Below are positions 3,570 through 47,798 of a stretch of DNA of 64,000 nucleotides, one piece after another. The stretch spans positions 42,022 through 106,021 of the IMG/VR virus record IMGVR_UViG_3300021139_000002. One strand, written 5' to 3'. Origin of the DNA: a virus. Numbering within the stretch: the stretch's first letter is position 1; each line of letters opens with the position of its first letter. The notes under the pieces are model-generated. The model did no database searches. It was given only the letters and a program-made list of their open reading frames with translations, and was not told the DNA's origin. Made by a program: the position numbers and the translations under genes.

Positions 3570-4410
3570 AATCGCAGAACTCTTTTACTCAATACAGGGC
3601 GAAGGTCGCTATATGGGCGTTCCCTCTGTATTTCTTCGCACCTTCGGGTGTAACTTTAAATGCCAAGGGTTTGGCATGCCTCGTGGAGAACTTAGCAATG
3701 AAGCAGAAAATATTGACCCGTCTAAGTACACCGAGTACAAATCGTTACCTTTGGTTAGTACAGGTTGTGATAGTTACGCTTCTTGGGATCCTCGCTTTAA
3801 GCATCTATCTCCCCTTCTTTCTACTGATGCGATTGCCACTGCTATTGTTGATACGCTACCGTACAAGGAATGGCGGGACGAACATCTCGTAATCACAGGC
3901 GGCGAGCCATTGCTAGGTTGGCAAAAGCAATATCCAGATTTACTCAATCACGAAAAGATGCGTGGCTTAAAAGAAATTACTTTTGAGACAAACGGCACAA
4001 TGCGTCTAACCTCAGACTTCACACAATTCATAAAAGACTGGGCATGGGATCATGAAAAATCACTAATGCGACAGGTGACATTCAGTGTTAGTGCTAAACT
4101 TCCATGTAGCGGTGAGCCATGGAAAGATGCTATTAAACCAGAGGTTGTTAAATCATATCAAGATACTGGTTCATATGTTTATTTGAAATTTGTTATTAGC
4201 ACAGAGGAGGACCTTAAAGATGCTGAACGAGCAGTTGAAGAATATCGTGCGGCGGGCTTTACTGGTCCTGTGTACATTATGCCTGTTGGTGGCGTTGAAC
4301 GGGTGTACACTCTTAATAATAGATCAGTAGCAGAGATGGCAATGCGAAAAGGATGGAGGTATTCAGACCGACTTCAAGTGCCACTATTTAAAAACGAATG
4401 GGGAACCTAA
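3556..4410 (+). CDS. queE: 7-carboxy-7-deazaguanine synthase QueE (radical SAM)
   Basis: ELFYSIQGEG, VFLRTFGCNFKC...GCDS, ITGGEP, ETNG, RLQ near C-terminus. Confidence 0.85.
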   Translation: MSKIKIAELFYSIQGEGRYMGVPSVFLRTFGCNFKCQGFGMPRGELSNEAENIDPSKYTEYKSLPLVSTGCDSYASWDPRFKHLSPLLSTDAIATAIVDTLPYKEWRDEHLVITGGEPLLGWQKQYPDLLNHEKMRGLKEITFETNGTMRLTSDFTQFIKDWAWDHEKSLMRQVTFSVSAKLPCSGEPWKDAIKPEVVKSYQDTGSYVYLKFVISTEEDLKDAERAVEEYRAAGFTGPVYIMPVGGVERVYTLNNRSVAEMAMRKGWRYSDRLQVPLFKNEWGT

Positions 4411-4589
4411 TGGAAACTCATAAAAGAACTATTGCTAGAACACTTAGCTATAGATTCACAGCATTACTTATAACTGCGTTATGGACAGGTTTAGGCGAAG
4501 CCGTTGCTATTCATTTTGTACTTGCATTGTGGCAATATTTTATAGAAAGAATCTGGCTTAAAATTAAATGGGGGAAGGTGAATGAATAA
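4410..4589 (+). CDS. small membrane protein (DUF2061-like)
   Basis: ETHKRTIARTLSYR...ERIW..IKWG pattern with hydrophobic core. Confidence 0.6.
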   Translation: METHKRTIARTLSYRFTALLITALWTGLGEAVAIHFVLALWQYFIERIWLKIKWGKVNE

Positions 4590-5028
4590 ATTTATTAAAA
4601 AAATATTTGGCATAGATAAAATCGAAGCCGCAACAGAACATGCAATCTCACAAGGCGAAGCAGCCGCAAGGTTAGCCAAAGAAGCATTAGATGCCGCAGA
4701 AGCCGCAAAAGAGCAAGAACGCCTTGCTAAACTTAGTCCAAAAGAATTGGCTACAGAAAAGAAAGAGCCTTGGATTGCTGTAACTAATACCCACGTAAAT
4801 AAAGATAACCTACGAAATGGATTTTTTGAACTTGATTGGAACGAGTATTTTGTGTTACAATTAAGGAGTGCAGGTTATATCGGTGAAACTGAAGAAGAAG
4901 TTGTAGACGAATGGTTCAGCGAACTATGTCGAAATTTGGGCAATGAAGAAGGTATCGATATGAGCCGCCGCGGTGCCGGTTACGTCAATCGTGCGTTACG
5001 TGATGATGGAAGATCTGAGGTCAGCTAA
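4582..5028 (+). CDS. hypothetical phage protein
   Basis: 148-aa ORF, coupled overlaps at both ends. Confidence 0.8.
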   Translation: MNKFIKKIFGIDKIEAATEHAISQGEAAARLAKEALDAAEAAKEQERLAKLSPKELATEKKEPWIAVTNTHVNKDNLRNGFFELDWNEYFVLQLRSAGYIGETEEEVVDEWFSELCRNLGNEEGIDMSRRGAGYVNRALRDDGRSEVS

Positions 5029-6020
5029 TGAACAAAACATACATTCTTGTAGATACTGCTAATACATTCTTTAGGGCTAGACACGTTATTCGTGGTAGCC
5101 TAGAAGATAAAGTTGGTATGAGTATTCACACCACTTTGAGTAGTATTCGCAAGGCATGGCGAGATTTTAACGGCAGTCATATTGTGTTCTGTTTAGAAGG
5201 TCGGTCGTGGCGCAAGGATCATTATGCTCCTTACAAGCGTAACCGCACCGACGCTCGGGCCGCGCAGAGCCCTCGCGAGGCTGAAGAAGATCGCGTATTT
5301 TGGGAAACATTTGATCAGTTCAAAGACTTCGTTATCAACAAAACAAATTGCACCGTATTACAACATCCGCAACTTGAAGCAGATGATTTAATTGCAGGTT
5401 TTATCCAAAGTCACCCTAACGACAATCACGTGATTATTTCAACAGATGGAGATTTTGCACAATTGATTTCTCCTAATGTTCGGCAATATAATGGTGTAAT
5501 GGAAATTACAACTACACACGAAGGATACTTTGATGCAAAAGGTAAGCGTGTCATTGATAAGAAAACTAAGCAAGAAAAGCCCGCTCCGGACCCACAATGG
5601 TTACTCTTTGAGAAGTGTATGCGTGGCGACACCTCCGACAATATCTTCTCTGCATATCCGGGAGTACGTGAGAAAGGCACAAAGAATAAGGTTGGTCTCC
5701 GTGAGGCCTTTGCCGATAGAGACAGCAAAGGATGGTCTTGGAACAATCTCATGTTGCAACGTTGGACTGACCACGAAGGTGTCGAACATCGTGTACTAGA
5801 CGATTATTATCGAAATGTTAAGTTGTGCGACCTTTCAGCACAACCTGATGAGATTAGAAAGATAATCGATGAGACAATCACTGCGGCAACTACAGCAGAG
5901 AAGAATATTCCACAGGTTGGCATACGCCTGCTAAAATTCTGTGCAGAGTACAACATGGTTAAAATTAGTGAGCAAGTACAAAGTTATGCAGATCCACTTA
6001 ATGCGAGGTACGTAGCATGA
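5028..6020 (+). CDS. rnh: T4 RNase H-like 5'-3' exonuclease (flap endonuclease family)
   Basis: ILVD..N, YKRNR, EADDLIA, STDGDFAQL, GDTSDNI motifs. Confidence 0.9.
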   Translation: MNKTYILVDTANTFFRARHVIRGSLEDKVGMSIHTTLSSIRKAWRDFNGSHIVFCLEGRSWRKDHYAPYKRNRTDARAAQSPREAEEDRVFWETFDQFKDFVINKTNCTVLQHPQLEADDLIAGFIQSHPNDNHVIISTDGDFAQLISPNVRQYNGVMEITTTHEGYFDAKGKRVIDKKTKQEKPAPDPQWLLFEKCMRGDTSDNIFSAYPGVREKGTKNKVGLREAFADRDSKGWSWNNLMLQRWTDHEGVEHRVLDDYYRNVKLCDLSAQPDEIRKIIDETITAATTAEKNIPQVGIRLLKFCAEYNMVKISEQVQSYADPLNARYVA

Positions 6021-40652: not shown

Positions 40653-42430
40653 TGTTTCAACTTAAAAATTTAACCGTTAAAAACTTCATGAGCGTTGGTG
40701 CTCAGACCCAGGCTGTTGACTTTGACAAAGAACATCTCACGTTGGTACTAGGTTCTAACTTAGATTTAGGTGGCGATGATACAGGTTCACGTAACGGTAC
40801 TGGCAAAACTACAATGATCAACGCATTGAGTTATGCTTTGTACGGGCAAGCCCTTACTAACATTAAAAAAGAAAACTTAATCAATAAGATTAACGGTAAA
40901 GCTATGTTAGTTACCGTAGAGTTTGAAAAGGGCGGAAACAAATATCGCATCGAACGCGGACGAAAACCCAACGTACTTAAATTGTTTGTCAACGATAATC
41001 AATTAAAGACTGAAGAAAAAGAAGACGAGAGTCAAGGTGACAGCCGAGAAACTCAAAAGGCTATTGAGGAAATGCTTGAAATGAGTCATACCATGTTCAA
41101 GCACCTTGTTGCATTGAATACGTATACTGAGCCATTCCTAAGTATGCGAGCAGCTGACCAACGTGAAGTTATTGAACAACTACTTGGCATTACTCTGTTG
41201 AGTACAAAGGCAGAAGCACTTAAAGTTCAAGTCAAAGAAACCAAGGATGCTATTACCGCAGAAGAATTTAAAATTGCAGGTATTAAAACTGCAAACGAAA
41301 ATGTACAAAAAAGCATTGATAGTTTGCACTTAAAAAGCAATGCTTGGGAAAACAAACAACAACAAGAGTTAGAAAACTTAGGTCGTGCTATTGTAAACTT
41401 AGAATCAGTTGATATCGAAGCAGAACTCAAAGCGCACTCTGCTCTGAAGTGGTGGGATGAAGAAAATACACGCATTAGAAATTTGAATAAACAGAAGTCT
41501 ACACTAGAAACAGCAGTTATTCAAGCAGAAAAAACTCTAAACAAGTACAAACGAGAGTTAGAAAGTCTAGCAAATAAAACTTGTCACGCCTGTGAACAAC
41601 AACTTCATGATCACAAACATGAAGAAATGACTGCTACCGCTACACAGCATCTAAAAGAAGCAGAAGATTACTTTCAAAAAGTAAGCACTCAGCTTACCCA
41701 AATTATATATGATGTAGGTGACGGTACATTGCCAGACAAGCCTACTACCTTTTATGATACAGAAGCAGAAGCTCTTGGACATAAAAACAATTTAGCCGGA
41801 TTAGAGAAATCGTTAATTTCAAAAGCAGAAGAAAAAAATCCGTATGCTGAACAAATTGAAGAATTAAAGAAAACTGCTATCCAAGAAATCAATTGGGAAG
41901 GTATCAACACGTTAACAAAGTACAAAGACCATCAGGAGTTTTTGCATAAACTATTAACCAATAAAGATAGTTTCATTCGTAAAAAGATTATTGATCAAAA
42001 TTTAGCATACTTAAACAAGCGTCTAACTTATTACATTGACAAATTAGGACTTCCTCATCAAGTTGTATTCCAGAACGACTTAACCGTTATGATTACACAA
42101 CTAGGACAGGATCTAGATTTTGATAACTTATCACGTGGTGAGCGCAACCGTTTAATTCTTTCTATGAGTTTTGCATTCCGCGATGTATGGGAAGGCCTGT
42201 ATCAAAGTATTAATTTGTTGTTTATTGATGAACTTGTAGATGCAGGCATGGATAGTGCAGGTGTTGAAAGTGCATTAGGTGTATTGAAGAAAATGGCTCG
42301 TGAAAGAAACAAGAACATTTATCTTATTTCACACAAAGATGAATTAGTAGGCCGTGTTAATAATGTATTAAGAGTTGTTAAAGAAAACGGTTTTACCAGT
42401 TATAGCAACGATATAGAGTATGTTAGTTAA
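40652..42430 (+). CDS. recombination ATPase subunit gp46 (Rad50/SbcC-like)
   Basis: NGTGKTT Walker A, CHAC zinc hook, LSRGE signature, FIDE Walker B, ISH. Confidence 0.92.
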   Translation: MFQLKNLTVKNFMSVGAQTQAVDFDKEHLTLVLGSNLDLGGDDTGSRNGTGKTTMINALSYALYGQALTNIKKENLINKINGKAMLVTVEFEKGGNKYRIERGRKPNVLKLFVNDNQLKTEEKEDESQGDSRETQKAIEEMLEMSHTMFKHLVALNTYTEPFLSMRAADQREVIEQLLGITLLSTKAEALKVQVKETKDAITAEEFKIAGIKTANENVQKSIDSLHLKSNAWENKQQQELENLGRAIVNLESVDIEAELKAHSALKWWDEENTRIRNLNKQKSTLETAVIQAEKTLNKYKRELESLANKTCHACEQQLHDHKHEEMTATATQHLKEAEDYFQKVSTQLTQIIYDVGDGTLPDKPTTFYDTEAEALGHKNNLAGLEKSLISKAEEKNPYAEQIEELKKTAIQEINWEGINTLTKYKDHQEFLHKLLTNKDSFIRKKIIDQNLAYLNKRLTYYIDKLGLPHQVVFQNDLTVMITQLGQDLDFDNLSRGERNRLILSMSFAFRDVWEGLYQSINLLFIDELVDAGMDSAGVESALGVLKKMARERNKNIYLISHKDELVGRVNNVLRVVKENGFTSYSNDIEYVS

Positions 42431-43624: not shown

Positions 43625-44257
43625 ATGCGTATCAATGAATTAATATTAGAACAACAACTTGATGAACTTAATCTTAAAGGGTTAGGAACAGGTTTAGGTA
43701 AGGCTGCTGGTGCAGTAGCCGGAGGTGTAGTTCAAGGTGCTAAAAATATGTGGGCTGGTGCAAAACAGGGATACGATGCAGCTCAACAAGCATTAAAACC
43801 AGATGGTACGCCAGCTACATCTGCTCCTACACAACAACCAAATACTTCTACTGCTCCTGCTAGCCCACAACAACCAGCTGGTGGAGAAGTTGCATCTAAT
43901 AACTTACTTCAAAGAGCACAGCAAGGAACTACTCAAGATCTTAATGCACAGCCAGCTACTCAAGCACCTACAGCTGGTACAACTCCTCAACAAGCAGCCG
44001 CACAGGATCAACAGGCAAAAATAGGAGTAGGACAGATCAATAAGATTATTCCTACTTTAAGAACACGTGATTTACAAAGTGTTAAGAAAAATGTTGATGC
44101 AACTATTGCTAAAAAGTCTAAACAACCAGCAGCTCCTGTTCAACCGCCAGCTCCGACACAAGCTGAATTAGATGCTGACCATGCAAGAATGGCCAGCGGA
44201 ACAAATGAAAGTAAAGTTATTCAATTCCGCAGTAAGTTTTTAGGGATAGATATTTAA
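43625..44257 (+). CDS. late low-complexity Gln/Ala/Pro-rich protein, possible internal head protein
   Basis: Late promoter; N-terminal I/L-x-E motifs (INE, ILE, LDE) resembling gp21 cleavage sites. Confidence 0.6.
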   Translation: MRINELILEQQLDELNLKGLGTGLGKAAGAVAGGVVQGAKNMWAGAKQGYDAAQQALKPDGTPATSAPTQQPNTSTAPASPQQPAGGEVASNNLLQRAQQGTTQDLNAQPATQAPTAGTTPQQAAAQDQQAKIGVGQINKIIPTLRTRDLQSVKKNVDATIAKKSKQPAAPVQPPAPTQAELDADHARMASGTNESKVIQFRSKFLGIDI

Positions 44258-44481
44258 AAGAACGGCTGTCCAGTTTCTTTAGCAATTTCAAGATTCTTTT
44301 CAATAATCTTACCAATTACTTCTCTATCTTCAAATGATAACATGAATGCCTCCGATGGAGGCATTCCTCTCATGTACCAACAGATTCTAAATACTTCGTC
44401 TTTTAAGGCTTTTGACTCTTGTTCATAATCCCTAACGAGCCTGTTGATGCCCTCAAGGTCAAGGGTTAAAAGCCTTAGACG
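44254..44481 (-). CDS. gp51/gpT-like C-terminal extension reached by -1 frameshift from the gp26-like gene
   Basis: 75 sense codons in the -1 frame starting at the slippery site (RLRLLTLD...ICWYMRGM...EAFMLSFEDREVI...KETGQPFF*); absent from the ORF track. Confidence 0.7.
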   Translation of the reverse strand, partial: RLRLLTLDLEGINRLVRDYEQESKALKDEVFRICWYMRGMPPSEAFMLSFEDREVIGKIIEKNLEIAKETGQPFF

Positions 44482-45332
44482 AAAAAAGTTGAAGCATCGA
44501 ACGTGATAGGAACTTGTACAACATCACCCGTTACTCCATTTTCTCTCATTTCATCGGTAACAGCTACAGACATTGGCTTGATTGTATTGTTATCCCTTAG
44601 TGCTTCTAAGTGAGTTTGAATTCTATTGAAGATTTCTTTGTCAATGTTCTCAACAAATTCTTTAATGTGATTGATATCGTTAGTGCTACCATTTATACTT
44701 TCGATTCTATCGATACTATCAGAGATAGTTCCTAATGTTGCACTACTTAACTTTTTGAAACTTTCCTGAAACAATTTGATTTTCTTATCATCTTCAATTT
44801 TTTCATCATTGACTACCTGCATGATCTTTTGAGTTTCAAAAGATTGTAGCGCAGCCGCACTAATTTGTTTATAGTTTAGAGGTTTAACAAATACGGTTAG
44901 TTCATCACTGATAGATACAACAGGATTCCAACTGATTTGATTCATTAAATTATCCATTACTACTCGCAAGTCGACTTGATAATCTAACTCTAAGGTATCA
45001 CTGAATGTAATAGGAGTAGTCATCATTTCACCGTAAGTTGCTAAACGAATAGCAATTAAAATAATGTCAACATCAATTGACGGAGCCAACCAAGCGTTTT
45101 TAATATTAGGAATACAATGTTGAATAACGTCTACTACAGCTTGTCCGTTCATTAGCGCATCGGGGACCTTGAGCATAAGTTCATCTTTGGCGGTCATAGA
45201 ATATACAGGAAACTCCCCGTTCTCTGGAATTTCTATACTTCCCGTAGGCCAATATTCACCGCCGCTGGGCAACTTGATATAAATCTTTGGTTGACGCATA
45301 AACATGGTTAGCGGATTGGTGGTAGAATTCAT
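44475..45332 (-). CDS. baseplate hub assembly / tail assembly chaperone, gp26-like
   Basis: I.LPS.G..W, MTAKDEL, D.D.ILIAIR.ATYGE; ends in TFFV; adjacent to tape measure. Confidence 0.8.
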   Translation of the reverse strand: MNSTTNPLTMFMRQPKIYIKLPSGGEYWPTGSIEIPENGEFPVYSMTAKDELMLKVPDALMNGQAVVDVIQHCIPNIKNAWLAPSIDVDIILIAIRLATYGEMMTTPITFSDTLELDYQVDLRVVMDNLMNQISWNPVVSISDELTVFVKPLNYKQISAAALQSFETQKIMQVVNDEKIEDDKKIKLFQESFKKLSSATLGTISDSIDRIESINGSTNDINHIKEFVENIDKEIFNRIQTHLEALRDNNTIKPMSVAVTDEMRENGVTGDVVQVPITFDASTFFV

Positions 45333-45348
45333 AGGTTTTGTCTCCGAA

Positions 45349-45383
45349 TAAATAAGTTAAGGGATTTCTAACAAGTATTTATA
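45349..45383. promoter_or_regulatory. pair of face-to-face late promoters
   Basis: TAAATA on + at 45349-45354; TATAAATA on - at 45376-45383. Confidence 0.6.
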
Positions 45384-45407
45384 TACGCACAAAACTACGG
45401 AAAAACA

Positions 45408-47798
45408 ATGTCAGTAACTGGAACAATAGGTAACGATCAAGTATTTTTAGATAACGCAGCCACCGAATCTACGTTACAGAAACTGCTGGCCGCTATAGAA
45501 AAATTAAACGGGACCGTGGCTGCACAAAAAGTTGCAGGGACTGCCAAAGCCGCGGGCATAGATCCTAAGATAGTTGATGAAGCAAATAACAAATTAGGTA
45601 CAATTGGTAAAACTGCAACAGGTGCAACTAAATCTCTAGACAATTTTACCACTACAACTGATACCGCTACCAACGGACTTAGTAAAATGGCCAATGCATC
45701 AGCAAGTGCATTGGGTAGTTTGTATGCACAATTAATGTCTGGACAGCCGTCCATCTCTGGAACACTGGCAGCATTTGAAGAACTTCCTGGGCCTCTTGGC
45801 GCGGTGGCAAAACTTTTTGGCGCCATTGCTGGATTTCAAGAAAAGAATTTAGATGCGTATCGTCAAATAACTTCTGTAGGTGCTAACTTTGCAGGTAGTT
45901 TATCTGATTTAAGAATTGCTTCTACAAAAACTTACATGACTTTAGATCAATTTTCTAAAGTCATTACAAATAATGCACAGACATTATCAAAGATGGGCAG
46001 CAATGTAAACGAAGGCACACAAGCATTTGTACAATTAAGTAATTCTTTATTAAGTAGTAAGGCTGGAGAAAACTTATTAGCACTTGGATATTCTACTGAA
46101 GAAGTAAACAATGGCATGCTTGGATTTATCAATGCTACCGGCGGACGTTCTGCACAAGAACTTAAAAATACACAGGCCATTACACAGGCTTCTGCAGATT
46201 ACATGACAGAGCTAGATAAACTAACTCAGTTTACTGGAGCAAGCAGAAAACAAATGGAAGAAGAACAGAAGAAAGCGGCTCAACAGGCTGCTTGGCAACG
46301 TGCTCTTTCTAAAATGTCTGAAGAACAACGTGCAAAAGCACAGACTGCTTATAACGCAGCCGCTGCCAGTGGTATTGCAGGCGCAACTGATTTAGTAATG
46401 TCAGAGATGGCAGGGTTACCTCCAGTAACTAAAGAAGCAAAAGAACTTGCTGGTACTATGCCCGATGCATACAATGGTATCAGAGACATGACAGATGCTG
46501 CTAAGAGCAACACATCTACACTAGGCGATGTTGAAAAAGGATTTGGTAAGTTTAACGAAGGCATATCTAATAACGTAAAGAACTTAGGTGTTGCAGGCGA
46601 TTATATGTCGTTGACTGGAAATAAACTGGTTAACAGCGCAGGACTATATGCAAACCAATTAGAAAAAGGTGGGAAAGATACTGCCGAGGGTACTGCAAAA
46701 GCATTTAAAGACATCTCGGCTCAACAAAAGAAACAAACAGAATCTCAAGCTGCCGATATGACAAAGGCTCAGAACCAACTTAAAGAGTTTGGACAAGTTC
46801 TTATGAGCATAGTTGCACCTATTGCAGGATTCTTAACACCTGCACTAAAATTCCTTGGACCTGCATTGATGGGATTAGTTGCCATAGTTGTTGGTGTAAG
46901 AACTGCAATGATGGCTTGGCAAGCTGCTATGGCTATTAGAGGTGCATTTGCAAGCGGCGGCGCAAGAGGCGTTGGCGGACTAATTGCTGAAAAAGTAACA
47001 GGTGGCGGCGGCGCTGCTGGGTCGGCTAGTGCCGCAGTAGGTAGCGGTGGCGGAGCCGCTGGTTTTGGTAAAGGATTTGTGACATTTGTTAAATCATTAG
47101 GTAGAGGACTTGCTAGTTTAGCACCTATTGCTGTTCCTATGTTAATAGGTGCTGGTGCTGTAGCAGGTGTTATTGCAATTTTAGGTGTGGGTATTGCTGC
47201 CGCTATAGCAGTTATTGGTGTAGGGCTACCTGTATTTGCTAAAGGATTAAAAACAATAACTGAAATAGATGGACTAGCATTGGCAAAAATAGCAGGCGGA
47301 TTGATGTTATTAGGACCTGCTATGGCAATATTTTCTGCCTCTATGATTGCTTCCAGCGTAGGAACCATTGGTGCAAAAATAGGAAACTTCTTCTCTGGTG
47401 GTGGCCCTGTATCATTAATTAAAGATTCTATAACACAATTGAGTCCGGTAATACCACAATTGGTACAAATTGGACCTGCACTTGAAGCATACGGTCGAGG
47501 AATTGTTGCATTTGGTAGAGCAGTAAGTACCGTTGACGTTGCTAAAGCGGAAAGATTAAAAGACATTATGAAAGGACCCGGAGTACTCGAAGGTATCGGA
47601 TCTGCAATCAAAGATGTTGGAGCCGCTACAGCAAAATTAATGGTTGGACAAACTGGTGGACAAGAAAAAAGTAATTTAGAGTTAACAACATTAAATAACA
47701 ATGTTAAAGAATTAACAAAAATAATGAAAGAAGTTGCTGAGCATACCAAGAAAACCGTAGATGCTACAAAGGCTTTGAATGGTAATGTATTCGCATAA
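45408..47798 (+). CDS. tape measure protein
   Basis: 796 aa, Ala/Gly-rich helical, with hydrophobic segments in the C-terminal half; next to chaperone gene. Confidence 0.7.
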   Translation: MSVTGTIGNDQVFLDNAATESTLQKLLAAIEKLNGTVAAQKVAGTAKAAGIDPKIVDEANNKLGTIGKTATGATKSLDNFTTTTDTATNGLSKMANASASALGSLYAQLMSGQPSISGTLAAFEELPGPLGAVAKLFGAIAGFQEKNLDAYRQITSVGANFAGSLSDLRIASTKTYMTLDQFSKVITNNAQTLSKMGSNVNEGTQAFVQLSNSLLSSKAGENLLALGYSTEEVNNGMLGFINATGGRSAQELKNTQAITQASADYMTELDKLTQFTGASRKQMEEEQKKAAQQAAWQRALSKMSEEQRAKAQTAYNAAAASGIAGATDLVMSEMAGLPPVTKEAKELAGTMPDAYNGIRDMTDAAKSNTSTLGDVEKGFGKFNEGISNNVKNLGVAGDYMSLTGNKLVNSAGLYANQLEKGGKDTAEGTAKAFKDISAQQKKQTESQAADMTKAQNQLKEFGQVLMSIVAPIAGFLTPALKFLGPALMGLVAIVVGVRTAMMAWQAAMAIRGAFASGGARGVGGLIAEKVTGGGGAAGSASAAVGSGGGAAGFGKGFVTFVKSLGRGLASLAPIAVPMLIGAGAVAGVIAILGVGIAAAIAVIGVGLPVFAKGLKTITEIDGLALAKIAGGLMLLGPAMAIFSASMIASSVGTIGAKIGNFFSGGGPVSLIKDSITQLSPVIPQLVQIGPALEAYGRGIVAFGRAVSTVDVAKAERLKDIMKGPGVLEGIGSAIKDVGAATAKLMVGQTGGQEKSNLELTTLNNNVKELTKIMKEVAEHTKKTVDATKALNGNVFA

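Follow-up and report, generated by a model that had tools for sequence, protein, structure and literature searches.

Does a gp26-like gene in a T4-type virus encode one protein or two? The question is raised by a 64,000-nucleotide (nt) stretch of viral DNA (IMG/VR record IMGVR_UViG_3300021139_000002, positions 42,022 to 106,021; hereafter the window), in which a gene resembling T4 gene 26 has a run of six T residues close to its stop codon and is overlapped there by a second open reading frame (ORF) in the -1 frame. We put the probability that this gene makes a short and a long protein by programmed -1 ribosomal frameshifting at roughly 85%, because comparison with relatives shows a slip site, a downstream RNA stem, a -1 frame under coding constraint, and lineages in which the two parts are naturally fused in frame. 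Long-tailed phages characteristically carry conserved frameshifts in their tail assembly genes. To our knowledge, no counterpart has been recognized in the T4 group, the best-studied contractile-tail model.

The slip site and the -1 frame

The 285-amino-acid (aa) translation of the gp26-like gene matches the Pfam family PF12322 (T4_baseplate) at 36.5 bits, above the gathering cut-off of 24.5 (35.3 bits in a genome-wide search), as well as phrog_150 (baseplate hub), and its Atlas neighbours are PF12322 clusters. The gene ends ...GCT TCA ACT TTT TTC GTC TAA. A preliminary description of the locus had reported the heptamer T TTT TTC in phase and one codon before the stop, a -1 frame open for 75 codons, products of 285 and 359 aa, and no ATG in about the first 36 codons of that frame. 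Sequence and translation bear out each of these points, with predicted products of 285 aa (short) and 359 aa (long) and a first ATG at codon 37 of the -1 frame (..WY-M-RGM..). The heptamer alone is no more than chance would give; the AT-rich window holds 18 copies of TTTTTTC where 27 would be expected, and the significance of the site comes from comparison with relatives only.

The relatives compared include jumbo T4-like phages recovered by tblastn at 23-31% identity (PA5oct, Phosso, Atu_ph07, RaK2, GAP32, Serratia BF, Munch, XaC1, and a Vibrio phage) and 80 closer IMG/VR loci at 56-78% identity. An in-phase T_TTT_TTC is present in 84 of 84 loci spanning 27-78% protein identity, the window, Phosso, PA5oct, and Atu_ph07 among them, and also in XaC1, Serratia BF, Munch, Vibrio 2.275.O, GAP32, and RaK2, while 73 of a further 80 IMG/VR loci carry TTTTTTC together with a -1 ORF. 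The distance from the heptamer to the zero-frame stop ranges from 1 to 11 codons in the jumbo-phage and IMG/VR relatives. Beyond these, gp26 of P-SSM2, S-PM2, and KVP40 ends T TTT TTC one codon ahead of the stop, and the in-phase heptamer is found in all distinct cyanophage-type and KVP40-type loci (59/59). In total, its phase is kept across ~190 distinct frameshift-type sequences from jumbo phages, cyanophages, and KVP40. Elsewhere in these genes, phenylalanine (Phe) pairs rarely take this spelling: of 68, 53 read TTC TTT and a single one reads T TTT TTC. The preliminary description had envisaged that homologs might lack the heptamer and conserve only the segment after the internal ATG, an outcome that did not materialize, since every frameshift-type homolog retains the heptamer. 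In the pelagiphage HTVC008M the corresponding sequence is T TTT TTT TAA, seven T residues followed by an immediate stop, and there is no ATG near the start of its -1 ORF.

In the jumbo-phage and IMG/VR relatives, the -1 ORF extends over 70-77 codons and its peptide opens with R.(R/K/Q)LL right at the junction. Alignment of the relatives gives a third-position entropy in the -1 frame far above the second-position entropy from codon 5 on. Over codons 6-36, upstream of the internal ATG, the ratio of nonsynonymous to synonymous substitution rates (dN/dS) is 0.32 in the -1 frame and 1.0-1.15 for the same bases in the other two frames; the coding signal that was to be sought upstream of the internal MRGM is thus present in relatives. 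These values indicate that purifying selection acts on the -1 peptide from the slip site onward. Several other loci besides the window have no start codon before codon 37 of the -1 ORF, and the PA5oct ORF contains no ATG, GTG, or TTG anywhere.

Existing annotations treat this peptide unevenly. In RefSeq it is unannotated in PA5oct (3853-4071 of the stretch analysed) and RaK2 (about 2337-2550), while in the GenBank records of Phosso, XaC1, BF, Munch, GAP32, and Vibrio 2.275.O an internal or overlapping start has been used to annotate a small, truncated hypothetical protein. No joined or slippage coding sequence is entered in the annotation tables examined for relatives. The extension of the window has no family match in Pfam, PHROGs, or NCBIfam. 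An AlphaFold2 model of the extension alone is all helical, with a predicted local distance difference test (pLDDT) score of 89.7, and has no Foldseek match in the PDB. A profile built from the extension retrieved 419 matches at E <= 0.001 among 1.84 billion representative proteins, mostly stand-alone gene calls of 40-98 aa.

The downstream RNA stem and natural fusions

An alignment of 52 sequences revealed two mutually complementary blocks that are conserved even at synonymous sites. The 10-bp stem that these blocks would form has standard pairs in 97.9% of cells, against 28-56% in controls with the partner block shifted by 1-3 columns. Five of the ten pairs have changed on both sides, giving 39 double-change cells, a level of covariation reached by 0 of 500 shuffles, and the 86-nt segment of the window itself folds at -27.9 kcal/mol (z = -3.78). 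The covarying structure follows the heptamer after a 6-nt spacer, within the 5-9 nt sought for a frameshift cassette. The preliminary description had also noted a small hairpin after the site; a stem is indeed present downstream, although the conserved element is GGCTTTTAAC/GTCAAAAGCC and not the CCCT/AGGG pairing proposed there, which falls in variable columns of the alignment and was rejected as a conserved stimulator.

Distant lineages keep a stem 3-10 nt from the heptamer with different sequences. At a spacing of 5-7 nt, stems are found in Phosso (GGCTCTTGTC / GGCAAGAGCC), Atu_ph07 (GGCTCTTTGT / ACAAAGAGCC), the Vibrio phage (GCTCTTGT / ACAGGAGC), and RaK2 (CAGCTTCT / GGAAGCTG), along with a local 11-bp hairpin in PA5oct. 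The stem score lies at or above the 95th percentile of shuffles in 81% of 127 jumbo sequences and in 70% of 54 cyanophage-type sequences. RNAalifold gave no single consensus fold for the pooled cyanophage set, in which stems appear per subgroup. S-PM2-like cyanophages have a perfect 11-bp hairpin (GTTCTATAATA / TATTATAGAAC) ~10 nt past the heptamer, with at least one compensatory change in a subgroup, and another S-PM2-like subgroup has a 12-bp hairpin (AAGTATGGCTCA / TGAGTCATACTT) after 4 nt.

Nature has also joined the two parts without a frameshift. The extension profile search identified at least 16 protein clusters of 319-351 aa that carry the extension in frame at their C-terminus and match PF12322 over their first ~260 residues; an earlier word-index search for longer proteins holding the extension had returned none. 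At the junction the fused proteins read ...LD.S..FR.(K/R)L(I/L)..., where a single Phe stands and the T-run is missing. Among the DNA sequences of the 80 further IMG/VR loci, 7 encode such in-frame fusions, with junction codons TTT AGA, TTC CGA, TTT CGG, and similar. AlphaFold2 modelled one fused protein with a pLDDT of 94.3 and a predicted template modelling (pTM) score of 0.91, the extension helices forming part of a single confident model. The in-frame fusions show body and extension as parts of one polypeptide. A complex prediction with body and extension supplied in trans gave no verdict either way (score 0.30, mark 0.32). Neither Foldseek of the fused model against the PDB nor a profile sequence search of the PDB gave a match. 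The phages with the fused form are a sister group of large phages, with contigs of up to 360 kb.

Table 1 Features of the gp26-like locus, in window coordinates
Feature	Position	Strand	Basis or remark
gp26-like gene, zero frame, short product of 285 aa	44475..45332	minus	ORF listing and translation; PF12322; phrog_150
Zero-frame stop TAA	44475..44477	minus	One codon past the heptamer
Slippery heptamer T_TTT_TTC, zero-frame codons ACT TTT TTC	44481..44487	minus	X_XXY_YYZ phase; invariant in frameshift-type relatives
Stem 5' arm GGCTTTTAAC	44465..44474	minus	Starts 6 nt downstream of the heptamer; RNAalifold columns 26-35
Stem 3' arm GTCAAAAGCC	44407..44416	minus	Closes a 48-nt loop; RNAalifold columns 84-93
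-1 frame extension, 75 codons plus stop (44254-44256)	44254..44481	minus	Predicted C-terminal helical domain of the 359-aa long product
T4 late-promoter-like box TATAAATA	45376..45383	minus	43 nt upstream of the gp26-like ATG
Divergent 796-aa protein, putative tail tape measure	45408..47798	plus	Context; identity inferred

Relation to gp51 and to phage T4

P-SSM2, S-PM2, KVP40, and HTVC008M each have 60-67 open codons in the -1 frame behind gp26. The S-PM2 ORF (S-PM2p208) carries the annotation gp51, baseplate hub assembly catalyst (57 aa), and the KVP40 ORF (KVP40.0327) is annotated as gp51 with similarity to 40 amino acids at the C-terminal end of T4 gp51; we refer to such ORFs as mini-gp51. 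In about one third of the 59 cyanophage-type and KVP40-type loci, the first 18 codons of the -1 ORF contain no start codon. A hidden Markov model of the cyanophage mini-gp51 matches residues 209-243 of T4 gp51 (E = 7.7e-9).

T4 itself is organized differently. Its gp26 (208 aa) ends ...KEFFELL* with the Phe-Phe pair spelled TTC TTT, gene 25 follows directly, and there is no slip site. Both T4 gp26 (E = 8.8e-64) and T4 gp51 (249 aa; E = 3.9e-52) match PF12322 over their full length and are paralogs, and T4 has two PF12322 genes while PA5oct, Atu_ph07, Phosso, RaK2, S-PM2, P-SSM2, KVP40, and HTVC008M have one each. T4 gp51 thus appears to be a long form encoded in frame, with the extra tail at about residues 202-249. 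The remark in the preliminary description that T4 gp26 and gp51 are annotated as separate genes proved central: the cyanophage and KVP40 -1 ORF is annotated as a mini-gp51, and T4 gp51 is a PF12322 paralog of gp26 with the tail in frame. In the stretch of T4 analysed, gp26 (3803-4429, minus) and gp51 (4480-5229, plus) are divergent neighbours.

How the extension of the window relates to these tails was examined at the profile level. The alignment by hhalign of the extension profile to the single T4 gp51 sequence was not significant, the fused profile aligned only a zinc-ribbon motif, and the extension profile found no match in the T4, S-PM2, P-SSM2, KVP40, and HTVC008M genomes, though it did find RaK2. 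Like the extension of the window, mini-gp51 lies directly behind a PF12322 gene in the -1 frame of the same T_TTT_TTC, is helical and of similar size, and shares the motif S/T..E...L/M.P..ER in the same register; unlike the extension, it is annotated as a gene of its own with its own ATG. T4 gp26 and gp51 share with the gene of the window the PF12322 family and a Phe-Phe motif at the end of the body, and T4 and the window both show a divergent late-gene arrangement beside hub and tape-measure genes. Unlike the window, T4 has two genes, has no slip site, and also makes an internal-start product, gp26'. At 75 residues the extension is longer than the T4 and mini-gp51 tails (~48-60), and four conserved cysteines are lost in the clade of the window. 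We infer that the extension occupies the position of mini-gp51 and the T4 gp51 tail, an equivalence that comes mainly from the same gene, slip site, and frame and a similar helical domain.

The four cysteines form two CxxC pairs, presumably a zinc ribbon. They are invariant in the in-frame-fused lineage and present in T4 gp26, KVP40, RaK2, and PA5oct, and in the window clade the single invariant cysteine left in the gp26-like protein is at position 73.

Taken together, these comparisons suggest that the frameshift is common to the T4 superfamily, with T4 itself as the exception. The short and long forms probably correspond to T4 gp26 and gp51, and T4 would have replaced the frameshift by gene duplication. 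With somewhat better than even odds, the T4 superfamily has its own equivalent of lambda G/GT, in which one ancestral PF12322 gene gave a short hub or tape-measure chaperone (gp26) and, through a -1 slip at U_UUU_UUC, a rare long one in which gp26 carries the gp51 tail; the arrangement would have been kept in cyanophages, KVP40-like phages, and jumbo phages, fused in some lineages, and duplicated into genes 26 and 51 in T4. If true, such an ancestral short/long gene explains the catalytic amounts of gp51 and its absence from virions.

Alternatives, assembly role, and neighbourhood

The downstream ORF could instead be an independent small gene, translated from its own start or by termination-reinitiation, with the T-run merely encoding a conserved Phe-Phe. 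It is annotated as such in the GenBank records of Phosso, XaC1, BF, Munch, GAP32, Vibrio 2.275.O, S-PM2, and KVP40, an ATG overlaps the stop or lies just past it in Phosso, Atu_ph07, and many cyanophages, and conservation of a C-terminal Phe-Phe motif extends even to T4 gp26. However, PA5oct lacks any canonical start codon, and the window and several lineages have none before codon 37 (jumbo phages) or codon 19 (cyanophages), yet the peptide is selected from the slip site. T4 spells the same Phe-Phe TTC TTT, and the other Phe-Phe pairs avoid T TTT TTC. A covarying stem at canonical spacing would have no role in a separate gene, and the in-frame fusions place both parts in one polypeptide. We regard an independent gene as improbable.

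Slippage during transcription, in which RNA polymerase adds one U within the T6 run, would produce an identical protein, and homopolymer runs can cause polymerase slippage, here with the same ...TFFR... product. It is very improbable here: the run has only six T residues and is always ended by C, longer runs are not selected except for the T7 of HTVC008M, conserved structure 3-10 nt downstream is a ribosomal arrangement, and the invariant zero-frame phase matters for tRNA re-pairing and not for a polymerase. That the open -1 frame is a chance feature or an unexpressed remnant has next to no probability, even though TTTTTTC is common in the AT-rich window, because conservation of the site, frame, peptide, and stem spans separate phage families (~190 distinct sequences), purifying selection acts on the -1 frame, and the extension profile found hundreds of proteins.

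Several observations nevertheless weigh against a frameshifted chaperone pair in the form proposed here. Many cyanophage loci have an ATG 3-4 codons past the slip site, and separate initiation may also occur at such loci alongside frameshifting. The extension resembles cyanophage mini-gp51 and the T4 gp51 tail only marginally: the hhalign match keeps a consistent register at P = 0.017, and 18-39% of real scores lie above the 95th percentile of shuffles, a modest excess. The gp26-like gene of the window is divergent from the putative tape-measure gene, not upstream of it, and the 796-aa protein encoded there has no recognizable tape-measure signature. Structural comparison of the PF12322 fold with solved chaperones using VIA-align gave best Z scores of 4.5 (YqbN, 3klu_A) and 4.2 (HK97, 2ob9_B), within noise, with all Z <= 5; that two phage tail chaperones figure among these weak hits is no more than a lead.

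Under programmed frameshifting, the reading we prefer, a late gene would encode a PF12322 (gp26/gp51-family) hub or tail assembly protein, and most ribosomes would terminate at the TAA to give the 285-aa short form. A fraction would pause on the RNA stem starting 6 nt downstream and slip back one base on U_UUU_UUC, with tRNA-Phe re-pairing in the P and A sites, and would then read 75 more codons to give the 359-aa long form with the junction ...STFF-RLRLL.... The added part would be a small helical domain joining the same fold as the body, and an abundant short and a rare extended chaperone would help to assemble the tape measure and hub while staying out of the virion.

A chaperone role is consistent with what is known of T4, where gp26 and gp51 are listed as hub assembly chaperones (Table 2 of PMC3004832), gp51 is needed for assembly and absent from particles, and gp26 is possibly also a hub component (PMC3004832). 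The same source still calls the roles of gp26 and gp51 contradictory or unknown (PMC3004832). One GenBank record names a gp51 homolog "tape measure protein assembly chaperone", and the PA5oct homolog of the gp26-like protein is without the electrospray ionization tandem mass spectrometry (ESI-MS/MS) note that its neighbours carry, a hint only. The gp26-like protein matched no chaperone family in Pfam. The PF12322 fold is widespread in large myoviruses (BFVD).

The best-known systems of this kind are lambda G/GT, whose tail assembly chaperone frameshift was reportedly described by Xu, Hendrix & Duda in 2004 (Mol Cell 16:11), a paper cited in PMC9024508, and P2 E/E+E', reportedly described by Christie et al. 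in 2002. In lambda and P2 the gene order is tube, chaperone, frameshift extension, tape measure, and the P2 slip site is also a T-run. As proposed for the window, both slip by -1 on a heptamer near the 3' end of a tail-assembly gene and make two nested products that share an N-terminal body. Their gene order is paralleled in S-PM2 and KVP40, which have a tail-tube-family gene, gp26, the -1 gp51, and a long ORF in that order; the upstream gene matches PF23849 in S-PM2 (p206, 1e-50) and PF06841 in KVP40 (KVP40.0329), and the long ORF past mini-gp51, which has no family match, encodes 1167 aa in S-PM2 and 656 aa in KVP40. These two phages would thus share the G/GT order only if the long ORFs downstream encode tape measures. 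The gp26-like gene of the window does not lie between co-directional tube and tape-measure genes, and a search of the 106-kb contig from which the window derives turned up neither of the tube families PF23849 and PF06841.

Unlike lambda and P2, the gene of the window belongs to the PF12322 protein family, with no significant sequence or fold match to solved chaperones, and is divergent from the putative tape measure; in some relatives, moreover, both parts form one in-frame gene, and in T4 they are divided between two paralogous genes. The likeness to G/GT lies in the mechanism (two nested products) and in the gene order of relatives, not in membership of a known chaperone family. By this analogy, the pair probably acts like the lambda G/GT or P2 E/E+E' chaperones. 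The preliminary description had proposed a G/GT-type pair in this lineage, of which the two nested products and the order seen in relatives stand; the arrangement is not special to the lineage and extends through the T4 superfamily.

No description of a gp26/gp51 frameshift was found in the full-text literature searched, which left subscription journals largely outside, so that a prior description is possible. A blastn search of the locus against GenBank phages gave no match. Although a mechanism of this kind is known, its occurrence in this gene family, the connection of gp26 with gp51, and the distribution over the T4 superfamily appear to be new. The frameshift would give gp26 and gp51 a concrete, testable model as short and long forms of one chaperone, and would connect the 57-aa core gene of cyanophages with the body that belongs upstream of it. 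In hundreds of GenBank phage records the long product is probably missing or wrongly annotated. Phages with the frameshift, the in-frame fusion, or the duplicated genes would also offer a natural series in which to ask why the ratio of short to long form is important.

The 106-kb contig is ~30% complete according to CheckV, and its source is therefore a jumbo phage. Its T4-type genes include gp46, gp47, the gp20 portal, the gp21 protease, a major head protein, and gp5-, gp25-, and gp6-like baseplate proteins. The 796-aa neighbour of the gp26-like gene has Gly/Ala-rich hydrophobic stretches and no family match in Pfam, PHROGs, or NCBIfam; PF25671 was not found in the contig, and BLAST of the protein against T4 gp29 and KVP40.0326 was not significant. 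Its PA5oct homolog is a virion protein (by mass spectrometry, according to the annotation), and its RaK2 homolog is annotated as similar to a tape measure protein. The divergence from the tape measure stated in the preliminary description is right as to orientation relative to this neighbour, a putative tape measure.

The divergent intergenic region between the gp26-like gene and the 796-aa gene (45333-45407, 75 bp) holds the TATAAATA box, which is rare in the window (3 copies versus 8.8 expected). The box fits the T4 late-promoter consensus and is a putative T4-type late promoter of the gp26-like gene. On the other side of the locus, a 210-aa plus-strand ORF without a family match (43625-44257) is convergent with the extension, and its end overlaps the extension stop by a few bases.

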